Shown here piece after piece: positions 36,987-53,216 of a DNA stretch of 64,000 bases. This DNA is from an uncultured delta proteobacterium (GTDB lineage: Bacteria > Desulfobacterota > Desulfobacteria > Desulfobacterales > Desulfosalsimonadaceae). Under the pieces are notes generated by a model that saw only the letters and a program-made list of their open reading frames with translations, ran no database searches and had not been told where the DNA came from. Both the position numbers and the translations under genes were made by a program. Each line of letters opens with the position of its first letter. Position 1 is the first letter of the stretch. Where the stretch lies: NCBI GenBank assembly GCA_963826785.1, contig CAWGYD010000001.1:816472-880471 (forward strand), read 5' to 3'.

Positions 36987-37241
36987 ATGGATGATGGTTC
37001 TGAAAAACAAAGAGTTTTAATTTTCACCCGTCAATTTGAGATTACGGGCAACCTTCATATCCTATACGGGGTCAGGCTGACCGACTATATGAATGAGTCA
37101 AAAGAATTCATAGCGTTAACGGATGTTGAAGTAAAACGTCCAGATAGTGAAGCGGTCGTATCCTCGTCTTTTTTAAATATAAATAAAGCAGATATTGAAA
37201 TTATCATGCCGGCGCATTTAGTGACGCAAACCACTCCCTGA
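36987..37241 (+). CDS. Small conserved protein (DUF6812-like)
   Basis: ITGNLH..RLTDYMN..FIALTD; GGAGGT RBS. Confidence 0.65.
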
Positions 37242-37266
37242 TGATGGGCAACTAAGGACACGTTCC

Positions 37267-39171
37267 ATGGCAAAATTAGATGAACTGTTCAGTGCCGCGA
37301 TTAACGTGAATGCATCTGATATACATATTGTAGCGGGTGAGCCCGTCATCATAAGGCATTTGGGAAAGTTGAAAAAAACTGACTGCGCGCCGCTGTCGAT
37401 GACGAAATGCCGGGAAGTTGTTTTTGAACTGTTGTCCGAGCCGCAGAAAAAAGAGTTTGAAGAAAAATTTCAACTGGATTTTGTGTATGAGATTTCCGGT
37501 ATTGGCCGTTTCCGGGGTAGCGTTATGCAGCATCAACGCGGGATGAGTGCCGTGTTTCGCGTTATTCCGCCGAAAATTATACCCCTGGATGCCCTCGGAT
37601 TACCGGACACTATAAATGAAATTCTGGATAATCATCAGGGGATCATACTGGTCACCGGCGCAACCGGGCAAGGCAAATCTACTACACTTGCGGCAATGAT
37701 CGATTATATCAATGAAAACCGCTCACACCATATACTGACGATCGAAGATCCGATTGAATTTGTCCATCCGTTCAAAAAAGGGGTGGTCAATCAACGACAA
37801 ATTGGAACCGGCACATTACAAGTAGCGGTTTTCGGAGTTTTGGCCAAAGACCGGTTTGCCCTTCCGGTGGATGTCCGGTTGTACCTGCCTAAAAAATGGA
37901 CCGATGATCCGGAGCGCTGCGACAAGGCAGGCATCCCTGAAACAGCGCGCACATTTCGCACCAAAGAGGAGCTTGCCCTTGAAATCGTCGCCCATGCCAG
38001 AGAAAATGATCTGCATTATGCCTGGGTGGGGGCTGACGGCGGATATGGAAAAGGTCCTGGATTTTGTATCGCCCTGGATCGGATGGGTGAACGCTTTGTA
38101 GTGGATCTGCACTCGGATTTTCGAGTTTATGTGGAAAAACCGAACCCCTATCTTCCTGTAAGCCGAAAAGGTCGGAAGTTTACCCGCTATCGTGTTGATG
38201 AAAAAAGCATAGAGGTCAAAGATGCTGTTGAACGGATGGGCCTTTCCGTCCAGCCCATTCTGGAAGTGAGAAATACCACGCGTGGAATACTCAAAATGCG
38301 GGCGTTGCGCATTCCCGTTTATATTTGGGAAAATGGAGACGGCATGATTCATCGGTATTCTCTCATTGCGACACAGACGCTGGGCAAAAATCCCGAAACA
38401 AAAATATCGCTCTCCAACGCGCCGGAAACGCTTGACCTGAAAACCATTGCATGGATGCAACTTCAACGATTCTGGGTAGAGCGGGCCTTTGAAGATGCAA
38501 AAAGCGAGTGCGGCATGGCCGATTACCAAGTCCGTAAATGGAGAGCGTGGCATCATCATATGGCTCTGGTGATGATGGCAATGCTGTTTATGCTCAATGA
38601 ACGGATAAGACACAAAGACACATATCCCCTGTTATCATGTTCGGACATTGAAGAACTTACCTATGCCAATGCATTAAAAAGCGCGCTTCGTCAGGACCCC
38701 GACGTTATCATGATCGGTGAACTCAGGGACCTGGAAACAATCTCAATGGCCATAACAGCTTCGGAAACCGGACATCTTGTCATTGGAACCCTGTCAACAT
38801 CCAGTGCCCATAAAACAGTGGAGCGGATCATCGATTCGTTTCCGGCAAAGGAACAGAATCAAATCCGATCGATGGTGAGCGAAACGTTGAAAGGCATTAT
38901 TACGCAACGCCTGGTGCCGGCAGTGGATGGCAGTAAAATGGAACTGGCTCTTGAAATTTTAATTGGCACATTGCCTATGGCCAACTTAATCCGAGATGAA
39001 AAGACCTACCAGATTCCATCCATGATGCAGACCAAAAAAAAAGAAGGAATGATCCTGATGGATGAATCACTGATGATGCTGATGCAGGATGGAAAAATTA
39101 CGGCAAAAGATGCCATGGCCAATGCGAATAAACCGGATAGATTCAAAACATATCTGGACAAAACAAACTGA
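37267..39171 (+). CDS. pilT: PilT-family ATPase interrupted in frame by an IS701-transposase fragment
   Basis: [25 protein letters not shown] | 280-aa insert | [22 protein letters not shown]. Confidence 0.9.
37819..38658 (+). mobile_element. Internal 840-bp fragment of an IS701-family transposase, without IS ends
   Basis: [75 protein letters not shown]. Confidence 0.9.
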
Positions 39172-39220
39172 ACCGGTCTGACAGCAAGTTCATATCCATA
39201 TCTATAACAGGGATGAATGA

Positions 39221-40264
39221 ATGACGAAACAGCTTCATCAATATTTCACGGAAATGGAAGAGAAGGGCGCAAGCGACCTGCATATGGTGATCGGATTGCC
39301 CCCCATGATCCGGCTCAACGGTGAACTGTTACCACTGGACCATCCAGTCATTACACCGGACTCGAACAGGGAGATTCTCTATGATATCCTGCTGCCCGAG
39401 CAACAGGCCCGGCTTGAGGAAAACCTCGATTTTGACATGGCCTATGAGCTTGAAAACGTCGGGCGGTTCCGGTGTAATTTTTTCTATCAGCACCGCGGCA
39501 TCGGTGCGGTATTCAGAATAATTCCTTCAAAAATATTGACTTTGGATGAGCTTTCGCTTCCCGAGGTTCTTAAAACCATTGCTGAATATCGGAAGGGCCT
39601 TGTTTTGGTTACCGGACCCACCGGAAGCGGGAAATCAACGACGCTGGCGGCGATCATCGATTACATCAATGACAGAAGGGACGCTCACATCATTACAATA
39701 GAAGACCCGCTTGAATTTGTTCATCAAAACAAAAAATGTCTGATTACACATCGCGAAATAGGCTCTCATGCGAGAAGTTTTGGTGAGGCATTAAAAGTTG
39801 CCAGCCGGGAAAATCCGGATATTATCCTTGTGGGCGAAATGCGGGATCTTGAAACAATTGCGCTCGCTTTGACCTGTGCGGAATTGGGCATCCTGGTATT
39901 CGGAACATTGCATACGAACAGTGCGGCACGAACCATAGACCGAATCATTAATGTCTTTCCCACAGACCAACAGGCCCAGATCAGGACCATGCTGTCCGAA
40001 TCCATCCTGGCGGTCATTGCTCAGCAGCTCATCAAAACCAAAACTGGCGGAAGGTGTGCGGCCAATGAAATCCTGATCGGCTCGACGGCCCTGGCCAATA
40101 TGATCAGGGAAGGGAAAATTTCGCAGATCGGTTCGCTTTTACAAACGGGCATTTCGAAGGGAATGCAAAGCATGGACAGCCATTTGTCGAGATTGGTCAA
40201 AGAAAATAAAATAACCAAGGAATCCGCATATGAAAAAGCCATCGAAAAAACGCTTTTTTTATAA
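39221..40264 (+). CDS. pilT: Type IV pilus retraction ATPase PilT/PilU, second intact copy
   Basis: ASDLH, GPTGSGKSTT, TIEDPLE, PDIILVGEMRD, GTLHT, GMQSMD. Confidence 0.93.
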   Translation: MTKQLHQYFTEMEEKGASDLHMVIGLPPMIRLNGELLPLDHPVITPDSNREILYDILLPEQQARLEENLDFDMAYELENVGRFRCNFFYQHRGIGAVFRIIPSKILTLDELSLPEVLKTIAEYRKGLVLVTGPTGSGKSTTLAAIIDYINDRRDAHIITIEDPLEFVHQNKKCLITHREIGSHARSFGEALKVASRENPDIILVGEMRDLETIALALTCAELGILVFGTLHTNSAARTIDRIINVFPTDQQAQIRTMLSESILAVIAQQLIKTKTGGRCAANEILIGSTALANMIREGKISQIGSLLQTGISKGMQSMDSHLSRLVKENKITKESAYEKAIEKTLFL

Positions 40265-40285
40265 GGACATGTCATCTTAGGAAAA

Positions 40286-42010
40286 TTGAAAATGGAAAAT
40301 CCAGCTTTTAATGAACTAAACATTGCGGCGCAAAGGCTTTTTGGGGCGCTTGAAAGCAATGGTTTTGATGCTGCCAGTAATTTTATAGATGAACTTGAGC
40401 AGTTGAACAACTGGCGTAAAAGCCTCTTGGATTTCACCAACGATTTGGCCGTTGCCATGGGTAGTTTTCACATTAACGATACGGCCACCAACAAGAGTCA
40501 TATTCATTCTTTTGTCAAAGGGATCAGCACCATCACCGCCATTCCGACCAAGGACAGCGATAAAAGTATCGTTATCCGACACCGCGGATTGAGCCCATCG
40601 GACAAACATACGGATCAGGAGTACTTTTTAAATAATGACTATGTGATATCCGTCGGAGATTGCGTTATTGATAACCAGCAACTGGATTATCTTGTAAAAT
40701 TCGGGATCATGGATGCCAAAGAGTTGGCCGAGCAATTGAAAAAAACATTTCAGTTTTTTCACATGGCAAACATTTACATCATCACCATCCGTTATAACAA
40801 CTGGGAACTCAAGGAGCAGCAAACGGTCCATGACGCGCTGATGGCATGGGGGCAATATTTTACGGGGTATAAGAAAGGGTTTGGTATTGTTTTAGATGAA
40901 ACCGGGCGGCCGAACGCCGGCCTGACGATTCTCGCGGGATTAAATAAACTGAAACTGGAAAAATTTCAGGCGGTGGCGGACAAGGTCCAGAAACTTGTGA
41001 GCCAGGACAAATCCGGGATGAGGTTTAAAGGCGTATACAGCTTATATGATGCCATTTTCGCTATTGACGAGTTGAAATCAAAATTTAAGAAATCGCCCAT
41101 CGAGATCAACAATGACAAATATATACAGGTATGGCAAAACTGCTTTGACAAAAACGGGCGGTTTAACCGAATTAAGTTTAATCAACACCGGCGTGTTTTT
41201 CAGGACTGGAAAAACGCCTTTTATGTCTTCTGGATGGATCTAAAATCCGTGATCATCGCTGAAGACAGGGAAACCATTCTCAACTGCATCATCCGGTTTA
41301 TCGCCGACAGCAAATTGCTCAATGAATATGTGGATTATATTCTTAAAGATTTTTATTATTACCCGTTGAATCTTCAATTCTCCGACAGGGATTCATTGTT
41401 TGTCGCCAACCTGCTGTTATTTAAGAACTACGTGAACATCTCCTATGACTTCGGTCATACGCCGGGGGAAGTCCTTTTTTCCGAGGACCCGTTAAATGAG
41501 GATTTGGTGGAACGGCTGCACACTGAAATCAATGACAAATGGGCGGAAAAATTTTTACAAAAGCATGTCACTGTCAAAAAAAACTTACATCAGGCGCTTA
41601 AAGAGATTGAAGAGCAGGACAATATCATGCCCCCTCCGTTTTTGATCAATGTGATGCGGGAGCTTTACATTTTTTTAACACTTGTTTGGGGCAAGGAGTT
41701 TAAATCGATTGTTTTAGATACGGTGAAAGAATATGCCAATCCAAAATCAGATCTTTACTGTTCTGAAAACAGCCCAAAGGTCCTTTTGCCGCTTTTGCAG
41801 TTTTTTCAGATTACCATTTTATGCCTGATCAAGCTGGGTGATGAAAGTGACGTCGATTTGTTAAATTCCATCCGGTTCAGGGAGACCGATTTTTTGTCCA
41901 TGAAAGGGGTTCTTCCGTCTGAATCATCGCCTCAAAAAAAATTGATTCACAAAATAATGAGCGTGGTAGCAGAGGGGGTCGTTTCAGTTGGGAAAAAACC
42001 GGGGCCTTAA
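40286..42010 (+). CDS. Large hypothetical protein (574 aa), co-oriented with the pilT pair
   Basis: Long AT-rich ORF starting 21 bp after the second pilT; no motif recognised. Confidence 0.8.
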   Translation: MKMENPAFNELNIAAQRLFGALESNGFDAASNFIDELEQLNNWRKSLLDFTNDLAVAMGSFHINDTATNKSHIHSFVKGISTITAIPTKDSDKSIVIRHRGLSPSDKHTDQEYFLNNDYVISVGDCVIDNQQLDYLVKFGIMDAKELAEQLKKTFQFFHMANIYIITIRYNNWELKEQQTVHDALMAWGQYFTGYKKGFGIVLDETGRPNAGLTILAGLNKLKLEKFQAVADKVQKLVSQDKSGMRFKGVYSLYDAIFAIDELKSKFKKSPIEINNDKYIQVWQNCFDKNGRFNRIKFNQHRRVFQDWKNAFYVFWMDLKSVIIAEDRETILNCIIRFIADSKLLNEYVDYILKDFYYYPLNLQFSDRDSLFVANLLLFKNYVNISYDFGHTPGEVLFSEDPLNEDLVERLHTEINDKWAEKFLQKHVTVKKNLHQALKEIEEQDNIMPPPFLINVMRELYIFLTLVWGKEFKSIVLDTVKEYANPKSDLYCSENSPKVLLPLLQFFQITILCLIKLGDESDVDLLNSIRFRETDFLSMKGVLPSESSPQKKLIHKIMSVVAEGVVSVGKKPGP

Positions 42011-44803: not shown

Positions 44804-47800
44804 ATGGAAAGAAAACGCATCCGTAAATCCTTTTTGACCCTGGGGTTGATTTGCCTTTCGGCTCTCTTGCTCCCCACGGCAGCCTTTGCCTGGAATCAGG
44901 CCACTCATGCCTATATCGCCGACCGGCTGAATGCGCACGTCGGGCATGACAACCTGCTTGAAATGTGGGGGAGCGTCGCGCCGGATTTCTTTAATTACAT
45001 CTTCGACCCGGCGGTCTGCCCCGGCTGGGTGTCGGATCAGACCCATGGAATGGTCTCCGATACCTTTCTGAAGGTATGGAATGCCGCAGACTCAGAGAAG
45101 GAAGCCGCCCTTGCCTACGGGTTCGTCAGCCACAATGAGGCCTGGGGCGCCGATCACATCGCCCATGAATCGAGCCTGACGCTCGGGTCCGGATGAAGGG
45201 TATGTCATCACCAAGGCCAGACTGCTGTTGAACGCGCCGGTGGATCCGACCACCCCCCACCCGACCTTCGACGAAGTCTTCACCGGGAATTTCGGCATGG
45301 AACCTGACGAGGCGCTGCTGATTGCCCATGCAATCACGGAATATGCCGTCGATATCCGGCTGGGGGGCGAGGTCGATCCCTCCCTCGGCCGGAAGCTGGC
45401 AAGGGCGGCCCGCGGTGAAACCAAGCGGTTTGCCGACCTGCTCGTCGCGGCTTTTGCTGCCGATTACGCAGCCTATTGCTTCGACGGCGACACTGCGACT
45501 GCCGCCTCCGTGTTGGTCGCCGCCGAGAAAAAGCATAGAGAGGACATGATCTATCTGGGTCGGGCGATTTCCCAACCTGAGCCGGTTGCGGTTCAACTGA
45601 TGGCCGGGCAGCTCGTGGCGATACTCCCCGACTTTTTGGGCACCCCGCTCCCTGCAAATACGCAGGCGATCATGGAAGCTGGAATTTCCACCGCCATGGT
45701 CCTTTGCGACGACTATCGGCCGGAGATTGAGGCAACGATCAAATTCGTGGCTGACAACCTGCGGGATCACTGGATTGTCTATGAATATCAAGGCAAAAAG
45801 GGGCCATCCGACTCCTGCAAGGCGCTCGAGCGCTGGGTCGCGTCGGACCTCTGTTCATCGTTTGATCCGCAGGCGCTGGCGGACCAGCTCCGCTCGGAAG
45901 ACACGCAGTGGCCGGACATCCCGACATCCATCACCTCGGACGTCGCCCTTACCGATGACGACAAGGCATTCCTCAAGCTTGCCGTGGAAGCCTACGTCTG
46001 GGGCTACGCGCCGATGACCATCTACAGACTGGAGCAGCAGAAAACCAACAGCCAGGCGCCCCTGAATCATTTCTACCATCCCACGCACCTGGCCCACTGG
46101 CAGCTCCCGTCGCCGGTGTCCGCTCCCAACATGGATGTGCTCTACAGCAGCGCATTCCTCGACCTTTCGCAGGGACCATTTGTCTTCACGATACCGTCTG
46201 TGGAAGGCTACTATGTGATCCAACTCGATGATGCGTACGGCAATTCCCAGGCCTCGCTGGGCAGCCGAACCCAGCCGGGCGGAGCGGCCGAAGAGTACCT
46301 GATCGTCGGTCCGTCGGACCCGGGCTACACCGACCCCGTCAGCTACCTGGGCCAGGGGTTCGATCAGCAGCATGTGCTTCCGGTGGACACGGAACACGCC
46401 TGGCTCATCGTGAGGATCCCCGTGAATCCATATGCGGAGCCCGGCTCGCCGATATCCCTCACCCAAAGCGACAGCTACCAGGCCAATGCCGCCTTCGACC
46501 TGACGCCGCTATCGAACCCGCAACCGGTCCCGCCCATGGACCCGGCGGTGGCGAAGGAATTCGAGGCGCCGCCCTCCGACGCGATGACCTTCTTCACGTG
46601 GCTGGGAATGGCCGTGAAGAACAGTCCTCTCCCCATGCAGGCGGCCTTCAGCAACGCGGTGCTACCGCCTTACCTGATGAGTCCCAGCCCCTCGGTGAGC
46701 GATGCGCAGCAGGCGCTGCTCGACTCTTTCCAACCCCTCGGGCTTGACGCTTCAGGCTTCCACCCAGAGGTTCTCGACTGCCGTCAGCGTGCGCTGCTGG
46801 AGGCCGGTATGGTCATCGGGGACTGCATCCTCAAAGCGGGACAGAACTTCATCACCGTCGGGCCACCCGAACAGAACTACTGGCACGTCATCGGCACCTC
46901 CAATATCGGCAAGTACCCTAACACGCCGAGCGGCTGGTCGGTGCGCTCGGTCGCGGCCTACGAGGGCGGCATCGCCAGTCTGGCGCCGGACGGCACTTAC
47001 CCCACCACGACCCACGATATCAACCGCGCTCGCATCAGGGGCGGCCGCGCCTATACCATTACCTTTGATGCACACAGCCTGCCACCCGTGAGCGAGGGCG
47101 GCTTCTGGAGCCTGACAATCTACTCCGACGACAGCGCGAGCGGCGTGCAGACAAACCTTCCCGCAGTCTCCTCCGCGGCCGTCCTCAACACGGCCTACTC
47201 ACAGCCCCCTGTCGATGCCACCTCAGTGGTGGACACGACGCACTTCTACAACCCTGATTACCAGGAGGACGACACCATCTATTTCGCAGTGTCCGGGGGC
47301 GGGATCGACGCGGAGCGCCCGTATTTTGTGATCGACGTGAGGTGCGGCGTCTTCCAGCTGAGTCGCGGCCCATGGACACCCGATCACAGCGGCATGGCGG
47401 CAATCACCGTGGATCCGTCCCTTGTCGGCAAGACGCTGATGACGGGGCTCGTCATCCCCGTTCATTCCCTGGGTTCGCAGCAGCTGCCGGCCGCCCCGCC
47501 CGCGCTCCGCGGCACCCAGCTGGCATTCGAGAAGGACGGCGATGGAAACAGCCTCCTGCGCCTCTACCTTCAGAACACCCCGCCAGCACTGCGCAGCAAC
47601 TGGCTGCCCATCCCGGACGGCGGGACGTTTCAGGCCATGTTCCGCCTCTACAACCCCACACCGGCAACCGAGCAGAGCGGCGAGGCTTCCGTCCTGTCCA
47701 GTACCACCATCCCCCTGACGACGGACGACCCCGACCTGGCGAAGCAGTACCCGCAGGAGCCGGTCAACGACTCGAACCGCTACGGCACCTTCGTATTCCC

Positions 47801-47822
47801 GCCCATCATGCCGATCGATTAG
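44804..47822 (+). CDS. Exported fusion of a Zn-dependent phospholipase C/S1-P1-like domain with DUF1254/DUF1214 domains; single frameshift near 45186
   Basis: AFA|WNQATHAYIA, WGSVAPDF, GFVSH..ADHIAH; removing one G in ctcgggtcc joins it to EAYVWGY, APNMDVLYS, GFWSLTIY, NWLPIP..FRLY. Confidence 0.75.
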
Positions 47823-47848
47823 GGAGTTATGGATTTACTTATCTCGCG

Positions 47849-47960
47849 TATAAAGGGTATGATGTGGCAGCATCCTTGGCGGTCGCTGCCAGGCGCTATG
47901 GAAAGCCGTACAGAATCAGAGTGGACAATGGCCCGGAATTTATATCAAAGGAATTGGATA
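47849..47960 (+). pseudogene. IS3-family transposase (rve core) remnant
   Basis: YGKPYRIRVDNGPEFISKELD. Confidence 0.75.
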
Positions 47961-48100
47961 TGTGTGGGCCTATGCCGTACATACACCGTATCTATTTCCG
48001 GACCCCCTCCAAGTTCCATAATCTTGCTATGTGTTCTCCCTCCGTTTTTCGAGCTTTTCCGCTCATTATGAGAACCAATGCGTCGGCCCCGGTTCATCCT

Positions 48101-49572: not shown

Positions 49573-49859
49573 TTTGGAAAAGATGATAAAAAACACAGAA
49601 ATGATCATTCCATACACACCGGACATACCGGTTTGATGAAGTCGGATATTTTTTATCAAGCAGGGTTATCCCGATTAATATCTTGTGATCATCCGTCCAA
49701 ATGGGATTTCATTCCGCCCCGGGCAGACTGCTCGATCCGTTTTACAAGTGCGTGCAGCATCTGCAACGCCTCTTTTCCATCCTCATCCAAGAGAATTCTT
49801 TTCATTTCCTGAAATTCCTGTTCGGTCAACGTCACCACCATCAGAAGGCCTCCTTTTGC

Positions 49860-52800
49860 ATTTTTTTATCCACGCTATAAGCGAACATGGGAATATAGAT
49901 CAGCGTCAGCACGGTTCCGACCAGAAGCCCGCCCAACAGCCACATCGGCCAGGGGCGAGAGCCGTTCCAGCCCGACGGCCCATTCAAAAGCAATGGGGAT
50001 CATGCCGGCAATGGTGCCGAACGCGGTCATGAAGACCGGCCGGAAGCGCACCCGCACGCTTTCCAGGGCCGCCTCGAACGGTGAATTGTTTTCACTGCGG
50101 AATCCTGGTAAAAATCGATCAGCAGAATCGAATTTTTAATGATGATGCCGAACAGCAGCAGAATGCCCACCATGCTGGGCATGCAGCTCGGCTTGTTAAA
50201 GATCAGCATCCCCCAGGAGGCGCCGATCATGGCCAATGGCAATACCAGCACCATGACAATGGCCAGGCGCACCGATTGGTAAATGGCGACCAGCGCCATG
50301 AGCAGCAGGATCACACCCATGACCGATCGATTTGATCATCCGCCCGAAGGAGTCCTTCATCTGCGCGATGTCGCCTTCCTGACTGACCTCCACTCCTTGC
50401 AGGCCGGCCGATTTGAGCGCGGCCACGGCGTGTCTTCGGTCAGGATGGAAATGGCCCGCCCGCTGCGGTAGCCGGAAACGTCCAGCGAGTAAAGCATCTG
50501 GTTGCGTTCGATCTTGTTGGCGGTCATCCCGTAATCGATTTGCGCCAGGGCGCTCAAGGGCACGGGGCCTTTGGGCGTCTGGACGGGAATCAGGCGCAAT
50601 TGATCAAAGTTCCCGTCAAAGGGCCGGTTGAAATAGAGGCGCACGAACTGGTTCTGCATGGAGACCAGGTTCCCGCTTACCGTGACCGGAACGCCGGACA
50701 GGGGGAGCTGGGCGGCGATCTGTGCCGGCGTCATGCCATAGGCCAGGGCGCGATTGGTGTCGATGTTCAGCCGTGCCTCCATAAAATCGTTGTCCCAGCT
50801 GGTGTTGACCGAGGTTAAGCCTTTGACCGTTTCCAGTGCGGCCGCCGCCTTGGCCGCTGCCGCGGGCAGGACATGGTAGTCTTCCGCCAGCAGCCGGACG
50901 TCTATGGGCGCCTTGATGCTGGACATGGGTGTGGCCCCGAAATCATAGACATCGGCGGCTTTGACGTTTTGAAGAGTCGGCCAGCCGGGACCGGATCTCA
51001 TCCTCGATCCGCCAGATGCTTTTCTTTCGCTGGAACCGGTCAACACAATTGATGGTCATCATCGCCTCGGCGGGCAGCGAACCCGAGCCCAACGACAACA
51101 CGCCGGGTTCGGACCCGAAACTCACCGAACTCATGACCACTTCCGGCTGCTTGTGAAGCCAGTCCAGAAAGGGTGCCAGGCGTTTTTCCGCCGCATCCGT
51201 CGTCTCATTGGCGCTGAACCTGACATGGGCCTTGATAATGCCGGTATCCATGGGCGGCATCAGGTCCCGGCCGATCACCGGCATGATGCTTTTCACACTG
51301 ACGGCCAGCAGGACGACAACCCCGATGGTCATCAGAATCCGCCGCAAGCCGGAACGGCCCGGCAGGAAAATCGCAAAATGGCGAGATAGGGGCCGACCAG
51401 ACGTCCGAAGCTTTTTTCATAGAGCCGGTCGAGGGCCAGTTCGAACCGCGTCTTTGCCGTCCCTTTTCGGTAGAGGAAAAACGAGATGGCAGGAATAAAG
51501 GTAATGGATAAAAAGTAGGAAACCAGCAGGGCGATGATCAGGGTGGAGATCAGCGGGCCGAAAAATCTGCTGCGGAAAATCACCGGCAAAAAGAAACGGG
51601 AACATGATGGCCACGGTGGCCACGGTGCCGGCGAAAACCGGCGCGATCGACTTCCTTGGTGCCGGCGATAATGGCCGTGTTCAGATCCTGCTTCAACTCC
51701 ACCAGGTGCCGTTCGATATTTTCAAGGACCACCACCGCATCATCGACCAGCATCCCAAGGCCAGGATGATAGCGGTGTAAATGACGATGTTCAGTTCGCC
51801 GCCGCTCATCCAGATAATCGCCAGCGTGGCAAAAAACACCATGGGAATGGAGGCCAGGGCGGCGGCCACGGCCCGCAGGTTGCCCAAAAAAAGCAGAATG
51901 ACCAGCAAGGTGAAGATGATGGCATCCCGCAGGGCTTCCAGCATATTGGTATTGGCGGTGTTGATCAGGTTGCGCTGGGTGTCGGCCAGTTGAAAGCGGA
52001 TGTTGGGGTAGCGCGGTTTCAAAGTTATTGATCACCGCACGGCCTGCCTTGCTGGTGGCCAGCACCGATCCGCCCGGTGCGCGCTGAATCGCCAGGGCGA
52101 TGGCGGCCTTTCCGTTGCCCTCGTAGCCGGAAAAGCGCTTCTGGTGTTCCCATTTGACCTCGGCGATATCGCCCAGGCGCACGTTGGTCGCCACGGGCAG
52201 CATCCTCAGATCTTCGATGCGGTTGTGTTCCCCGTAAACGGTGAGGGTATAAAAGGAATCGGCGCCTTTGCTGAAACCGATGGGCGCATCCCGGTCCAGG
52301 GCGCGCACCGTGGCGCTGATTTTATCCAGGCTCAGCGCCATAGGCCTTGGCCTTGAAGGGATTGACATTGATGCTGATCGCGCTCTGGTAGCCGCCGAAT
52401 ATTTCCACGTTGCCGACATTCGGGTTGCGCAGCAGGGCGGGCTTGATGTCGCTTTCGGCGATTTTGCGCACATCATCCAGCGTCAGGCCGCCGCCGGCCG
52501 GTGACAGGGCGAACACATCCACCGGCAGAATATGGGAGCCGGCCGTGTAGATGGAAGGATTGACTTCCGGCGGCAGTTTGCCGCGCACTTTGTTGATGGC
52601 GTTGTTGACGTCCACGGCCGCCGGGCTCCAGCCCTTTGGCGTATTCGAATTCGGCCGTGACAATGGACATGCCGGCGATATTGACGGAGCTGACCTGCCG
52701 GATCTGGGAAAGGGTGGAGACCTCTTCTTCAATGGGCTTGGAAACCGTGGCGGCGACGACATTCGGGTGTGGCTCCGGGCACCTGGCTCATGACGATGAT

Positions 52801-52926
52801 CGTCGGCCGGTCGCTGTCCGGAAAAAGATTTTTGGGCATCTCGATCAAACCGTAGACGCCAAGCACGAAAAAACCGGCAATCAGGCTGTACAGCAGGTAT
52901 GGACGTTTGTGAAAGAAATCGAACAT
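49860..52926 (-). pseudogene. AcrB/CzcA-type RND permease broken by about a dozen single-base frameshifts
   Basis: Consecutive fragments in alternating frames: LFPDSDRP, AAVDVNNAI, GMLVDDAVVVLENIER, GIIIKNSILLIDF, RFRPVFMTA. Confidence 0.85.
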
Positions 52927-52936
52927 GCCGGTCCTC

Positions 52937-53216
52937 CTATAAATTGCTCTGAACCACGGGGACGCCCGTGGCCACCCGCAGGAGGATATCCGGCTTGGCG
53001 ATGATCACGGCTTTGCCTTCCAGATTTTCCGCAACGGTTACGCCTTCAACACCGCGGGCTTTGATATGCACCTCAATTCGCCGCGCTTTCCCGTCGGGGG
53101 TCAAAACAAATACCGATGAGGCGCTGTCCATGGTCAATATCGCATTAACGGGGAGCAACACATCATCGGCTTTGTAAACGACCACGCGCACATTGACAAA
53201 CTGGCCTTCAACCAGT
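52937..53216 (-). pseudogene. C-terminal fragment of an RND periplasmic adaptor
   Basis: GLVEGQFVNVRVV..LLPVNAIL..VFVL; no start of its own. Confidence 0.7.

Follow-up and report, generated by a model that had tools for sequence, protein, structure and literature searches.

How did the middle part of a transposase gene of the IS701 family come to lie, precisely and in frame, inside a gene for a PilT-like ATPase, and does the resulting fusion protein exist? The gene stands in the window, by which we mean the whole 64,000-nucleotide stretch of DNA that was analysed, taken from a genome of 4.43 Mb in 11 contigs. Our best reading is that the feature is a commonplace polymorphism for an IS701 insertion, which the assembly has represented wrongly.

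A transposase core inside a PilT-like gene

On the plus strand, an unbroken frame at 37267-39171 encodes 634 residues (about 71.7 kDa) with no internal stop codon. The original prediction had seen in it two halves of PilT separated by 280 residues of an IS701-family transposase, and profile searches bear this out: the NCBIfam PilT model TIGR01420 scores 414 bits over two stretches (cut-off 319), and the IS701 transposase model NF033540 scores 190.5 bits (cut-off 150) at residues 185-445, spanning profile positions 117-362 of 363. With Pfam, T2SSE is likewise split over two stretches, and DDE_5 falls at residues 185-323. Walker A, the Asp box and Walker B are all intact in the PilT-like part. 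Its N-terminal portion (37267-37818, plus strand; residues 1-184) contains Walker A (GATGQGKS) and the Asp box (TIEDPIE) and is 80% identical to the orthologues of two related genomes (G011 and G013), and its C-terminal portion (38659-39171, plus strand), which holds the Walker B region, is 85-88% identical to the same orthologues. Between them lies the 840-bp internal piece of transposase gene (37819-38658, plus strand; residues 185-464).

A DUF6812 gene lies upstream of the fused frame (36987-37241, plus strand), and an intact canonical PilT paralogue with the His box GTLHT adjoins it (39221-40264, plus strand), an adjacency also seen in relatives. The wider cluster, conserved in relatives and occupying 36987-42010 of the window, comprises DUF6812, the PilT-like gene (with GTLST or GTLAT), canonical pilT and a gene for a 574-residue protein, which shows 65% identity in G013 and has no Pfam or NCBIfam match. 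Four further PilT-like genes are present in the genome; an extract of a study on Geobacter also reports several pilT paralogues there (PMC5065972).

Orthologues were collected by a DNA search over 41 genomes, and the junction region was displayed for 11 related genomes. The uninterrupted allele is indeed present in relatives, the gene being unbroken in all 11. As predicted, excising 37819-38658 restores PilT: the rejoined sequence is colinear without gaps with 11 of 11 orthologues, no PilT residue is lost or gained, and the orthologue in G024 reads TTA/ACC at the join, which is the window sequence after excision. The rejoined protein has one private change. The interrupted copy had also been singled out for carrying GTLST in place of GTLHT. 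The GTLHT box is absent from it, but GTLST is normal in its orthologue group, where it occurs in 8 of the 11 orthologues and in 62 of 113 orthologue-length proteins (GTLAT in 35). The substitution is unconnected with the insert.

The closest full element to the insert (L007; 78% amino-acid identity) is 1518 bp long and has terminal inverted repeats (TIRs) and TTAA on both sides. Compared with it, the insert has lost 511 bp at the left and 161 bp at the right; against the five closest loci with both ends, the losses are 505-511 bp and 161-168 bp, both TIRs included. The original prediction had described an insert that lacks the N-terminal region with the first catalytic Asp, keeps ADGGYG and WVERAF and has neither terminal repeats nor a target duplication, and all of this stands. 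The first-Asp segment (LLIDES in L007) is missing, ADGGYG and WVERAFED are retained and, by the residue roles of the family, the DDE triad is incomplete. No TIR is found at the insert junctions, and the target 4-mer is present once, with no 4-bp duplication. Having neither the ends of the element nor its first catalytic Asp, the fusion, if real, could not transpose.

The insert shows no decay. It has no frameshift or stop and gives an uncorrected pN of 0.12-0.13 against a pS of 0.59-0.71. At columns that are otherwise invariant its private changes number 2, compared with 0-8 among 14 relatives. On the left the transposase of the relatives extends beyond the insert at all of 108 loci, and on the right at 118 of 119, so the insert ends mark no natural unit. 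The insert is a remnant of IS701 and not an element. The full-length donor envisaged by the original prediction was not found in the assembly (87.8% complete), where the only IS701 is a distant one of 29% identity; the ends of L007, searched against the same genome, gave no significant match.

In the public protein collection the 634-residue fusion forms a cluster of one, from a single contig. A DDE domain occurs in 0 of the 119 other PilT matches listed and a PilT domain in 0 of the 25 other long transposase matches, and no second fusion to a host gene was seen among the 26 long transposase matches (3 of the other 25 were inspected in full). The exact pattern of the empty allele has 0 matches in metagenome_contigs, and the search for data from the same species found none. 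AlphaFold2, run on the fusion with a 6-row alignment, returned a mean pLDDT of 42.7 and a pTM of 0.27, values too low to be informative about the motor. If real, the fusion would probably be impaired as a hexameric motor by the 280 residues inserted between the Asp box and Walker B.

Junction placement and target site

A conserved 4-bp target duplication is reported for the IS701 family in an extract of De Palmenaer et al. 2008 (PMC2266710). Our set of relatives comprises 123 loci from mixed sources. The insert was matched over its full length by 103, among which 32 have TIRs and identical 4-bp flanks. The 4-mers duplicated in the 32 full-length relatives are TTAG (11), CTAA (10), TTAA (7), CTAG (1) and others (3), so that 29 of 32 fit YTAR, although the 32 duplications are not independent because several share genomes. 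YTAR serves as a label for the IS701-group target; the counts were computed here. A literature search pairing IS701 with YTAR found nothing.

Five placements of the 840-bp excision yield a sensible PilT junction, but for three of them the donor would need Leu, Ile or Val ahead of the Gln. The residue preceding this Gln is Cys, Gly or Ser in 108 of 108 relatives, which excludes junction shifts of -2 to -4. Two placements are left. In one, the break falls inside TTAA and residue 184 is Leu, with TTA at 37816-37818 (plus strand) as bases 1-3 of the putative target and 38659 as the fourth; in the other, one base to the left (37818-38657), it falls inside TTAC and residue 184 is Phe. The exact junction 37819-38658 proposed in the original prediction thus works, but the placement with Phe is also permitted. 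Leu is the commoner residue 184 (68 of 88), Phe is found in the two closest orthologues by protein search, and TTAC is the duplicated target in 1 of the 32 relatives. We also considered IS200/IS605 or core recombination with TTAC at both junctions and rejected it: the two TTACs lie 841 bases apart, and a donor Leu before Gln occurs in 0 of 108 relatives.

Sites of the type YTAR, counted with the positions directly at them, cover 2.8% of pilT, YTA[ACG] sites 5.5% and sites of the loosest motif 14%. In-register microhomology at the junctions amounts to at most 1 base, and the left and right flanks sum to exactly one empty site. Because the break lies within the TA-centred target 4-mer of the group, the starting event would most likely have been an ordinary IS701 insertion that preceded the loss of the ends, a conclusion for which we regard the sequence evidence as moderate. 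The earlier claim that the insert is not a transposition product is weakened accordingly, the break being inside a 4-mer of the type that this IS group duplicates.

A consensus artefact as the favoured origin

We put at about 0.7 the probability that the end-less insert is a consensus artefact, made from reads with and without IS701. In some cells of the population, an intact IS701 of about 1.51 kb would have entered pilT at a target of the TTAA type. The draft contig would have carried the IS-bearing allele and many reads the empty one, and piecewise consensus or polishing would have swapped the stretches that span the junctions for empty-allele sequence. Both IS ends and one target copy would be lost in this way, and the middle, covered by IS reads only, would stay. 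The model predicts all three features that are observed directly: the IS ends are absent, the target is single, and neither the PilT halves nor the insert has decayed. The break at the target type of the IS group, flanks that total exactly one empty site and a fusion that is a database singleton, with no like PilT/DDE combination among the matches compared, also argue for it. The assembly has likely merged cells that carry an ordinary insertion with others that lack it, so there is probably no such fusion protein. Its open frame would then be luck, at about 1 in 18 (orientation and two frames), in a window that was flagged for being in frame. Of the two origins offered by the original prediction, the assembly chimera survives in this more specific form, whereas illegitimate recombination is weakened by the target-type site.

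Haplotyping errors of assemblers, of the "Trigodet type", offer a precedent. Contigs from long-read metagenome assemblers can combine the sequences of the subpopulations, each in whole or in part, or can show a minor allele that rests on one read (bioRxiv 10.1101/2025.04.22.649783, section 8, Fig. 4A/B), and Racon calls non-overlapping windows independently and then splices them, according to an extract of its description (PMC5411768). End-less IS cores with a single target are not described in the titles and abstract openings covered by our literature search.

Several points count against the artefact. We infer the artefact itself, the assembler and the read type alike. The lengths (505-511 bases lost, 840 kept and 161-168 lost here, and 553 lost in a parallel copy, L173, described below) misfit one pass with 500-base windows, which we assume to be the usual consensus window size. 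A full donor is absent from the assembly (88% complete), Phe184 in the two closest orthologues would make the target TTAC, seen in 1 of 32 duplications, and the genome encodes Ku.

Trimmed copies elsewhere and the state of the assembly

A second end-less IS piece in the same assembly speaks for the artefact. This 1004-bp internal piece of an IS1634-like element (C6:387295-388298) lies within a GC-rich repeat, is identical at 982 of 1005 positions to the inside of a full copy at about C6:697222-698989, and lacks about 477 and 286 bp (ends read by eye). Its joined flanks align over the junction with other copies of the repeat at 75-80%. However, most of its differences from the full copy are synonymous (13, beside 7 non-synonymous ones, 2 stops and 1 gap), which points to a diverged variant as its source, and the piece could be a genuine remnant in decay.

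Close IS701 copies were listed exhaustively in three other long-contig MAGs. In G042, three of the five near-identical copies are full and two lack one end plus one target copy, which speaks for the artefact. One of the two, L173 (G042:C48:99767-100751), sits inside a multi-copy IS110 and keeps bases 1-985 of 1534, one end and one target copy being gone. With it excised, an 80-mer matches 5 of the 6 other host IS110 copies exactly (the sixth has an IS630-like element 13 bp away); 553 bases are lost, with no more than 1 base of microhomology. The other, L169, counts little as a parallel, its loss being merely 9 bases with 2 bases of microhomology. The remaining two MAGs weigh on the other side: in G041 a contig end interrupts one copy and the other 7 are full, with 0 of 7 internal copies trimmed, and in G043 the 13 matches comprise 11 full copies and 2 partial ones whose empty sites are unverifiable. 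Also in G043, the IS701 copies L184 and L185 have identical flanks inside a 3.7-kb repeated unit and are probably nested in another mobile element. A plasmid collection, sought as an isolate control, held no close IS701 relative.

A scan of the window's own genome for further end-less IS pieces gave no match with PF00665, PF13683, PF00872, PF13358, NF033516, PF13701 or PF05598. Matches were obtained with PF02371, PF03050, PF13751, NF033546 and PF01797, and those followed are full-length; contig C2 has one short decayed IS4-like remnant. No further end-less case was found in a library of 628 ORFs from the fetched loci.

We infer that the source is a long-read metagenome assembly. It is a rough one, which again favours the artefact: C2 opens with a 7.6-kb fold-back (C2:17-7595) of 99% identity that is probably an assembly artefact, and among 11 full-length copies of mobile elements the ORFs of 3 are broken.

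Other features of the window and genome were recorded in passing. An efflux-pump-like gene (49600-53100, minus strand), presumably AcrB-like, is fragmented over all three frames, likely by indel errors. A tiny integrase-like remnant at 47823-47980 (YRIRVDNGPEFISKELD), which we take to be IS3-like, marks the edge of a GC-rich block that contains an 864-residue ORF (45228-47822). Outside the window, a 2-kb element with an ORF of 580-610 residues occurs in three copies (C5:280845-282841, C5:304614-306613 and C10:16658-18641), and its ends match a 150-bp repeat with about 30 copies in the genome. A 500-bp element with palindromic ends (C1:528029-528619 and similar) and a shorter 290-bp form are present in several copies each and have C-rich and G-rich termini in common.

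A real allele and other origins

It is unlikely, though worth weighing seriously, that the allele is real. IS701 would then have inserted at TTAA, the transposase would have cleaved within the target copy at each end, and end joining of the Ku type would have sealed the flanks to a shortened middle piece (unless two deletions had the same effect). The position of the break at the target type and an insert free of frameshift and stop suit this course of events, and Ku is represented by two tandem domain matches above the Pfam cut-off (C3:288458-289691, minus strand). Truncated IS701 remnants do occur in other assemblies: among the 123 mixed-origin loci, 6 of the 106 left ends that could be assessed are truncated and 3 of 119 at the right, but the seven truncated loci look short and decayed or seem to adjoin a different IS. 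Both losses would also have to end within the target copies and sum to one target, no decay is seen, and selection to restore the frame would probably be weak, given the four other PilT-like genes. Biological deletion derivatives, moreover, typically keep their ends and lose the middle.

More doubtful still is the particular proposal that a real allele reflects an undescribed exit of IS701, with cuts in both TA-centred target copies and end joining around a trimmed middle. PiggyBac-like cutting chemistry forms the background to this idea. Were the route to exist, a gene knocked out by an IS would become one with a scarless domain insertion in frame, and the same route would have produced the IS1634-like piece and the copy in G042 that is trimmed on one side. 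An extract of a study of one IS701 member (PMC8944449) describes replicative transposition and does not mention end loss.

We consider it very improbable that illegitimate recombination placed a free internal transposase fragment in pilT with no earlier transposition. The lack of IS ends and of a duplication at the site, and of a donor copy in the assembly, would agree with such an event, but the site coincides with a target type expected at 3-6% of positions (14% for the loosest motif), and the junctions offer hardly any microhomology in register (1 base at most). That the 840 bp form a unit of their own, able to move or to splice itself out in the manner of an intein or intron, is scarcely credible despite the precise and in-frame insert, given that the transposase runs beyond both insert ends in relatives, that the insert starts with Gln and ends with Leu and has no Hint family match in Pfam (lacking intein splice residues, as originally stated), that Rfam yields 0 matches to group I or II introns or an IStron at E<=0.1 in 37200-39300, and that the 26 long matches contain no second fusion.

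Implications and comparison with known systems

If the consensus artefact is the right reading, the locus shows nothing more unusual than a polymorphic IS701 in a pilT gene that has several paralogues. Long-contig MAGs can then carry end-less IS cores with a clean target, which pass for plausible singleton domain fusions once they are in protein databases, and the signature of a kept middle, missing ends and a single target is easily screened. A real allele would instead represent a new path from IS insertion to in-frame domain insertion.

The locus resembles the described haplotyping errors of assemblers in that, at a conserved position, the contig includes some of the sequence specific to a subpopulation, or a minor allele; it differs in its trimmed IS ends and single target, which are not among the errors described in section 8 of that report (bioRxiv 10.1101/2025.04.22.649783). 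With the IS701 family (NF033540) the insert shares a core above the cut-off and a site of the 4-bp type that relatives duplicate. Unlike IS701 elements, it has no TIRs, duplication, first-Asp N-terminal part or C-terminal tail. The window gene is like the PilT/PilU retraction ATPases in keeping Walker A, the Asp box and Walker B, and it matches PDB 3jvu with E=1e-91, the join corresponding to residue 183 of the 3jvu chain with no loss. It departs from them in the 280 residues between the Asp box and Walker B and in the replacement of the first His-box histidine by Ser, which is usual for its orthologue group. MITEs and Ds, like the insert, are partial transposons at a target site, but they keep their ends and lose their middle, whereas the insert has kept its middle and lost both ends.
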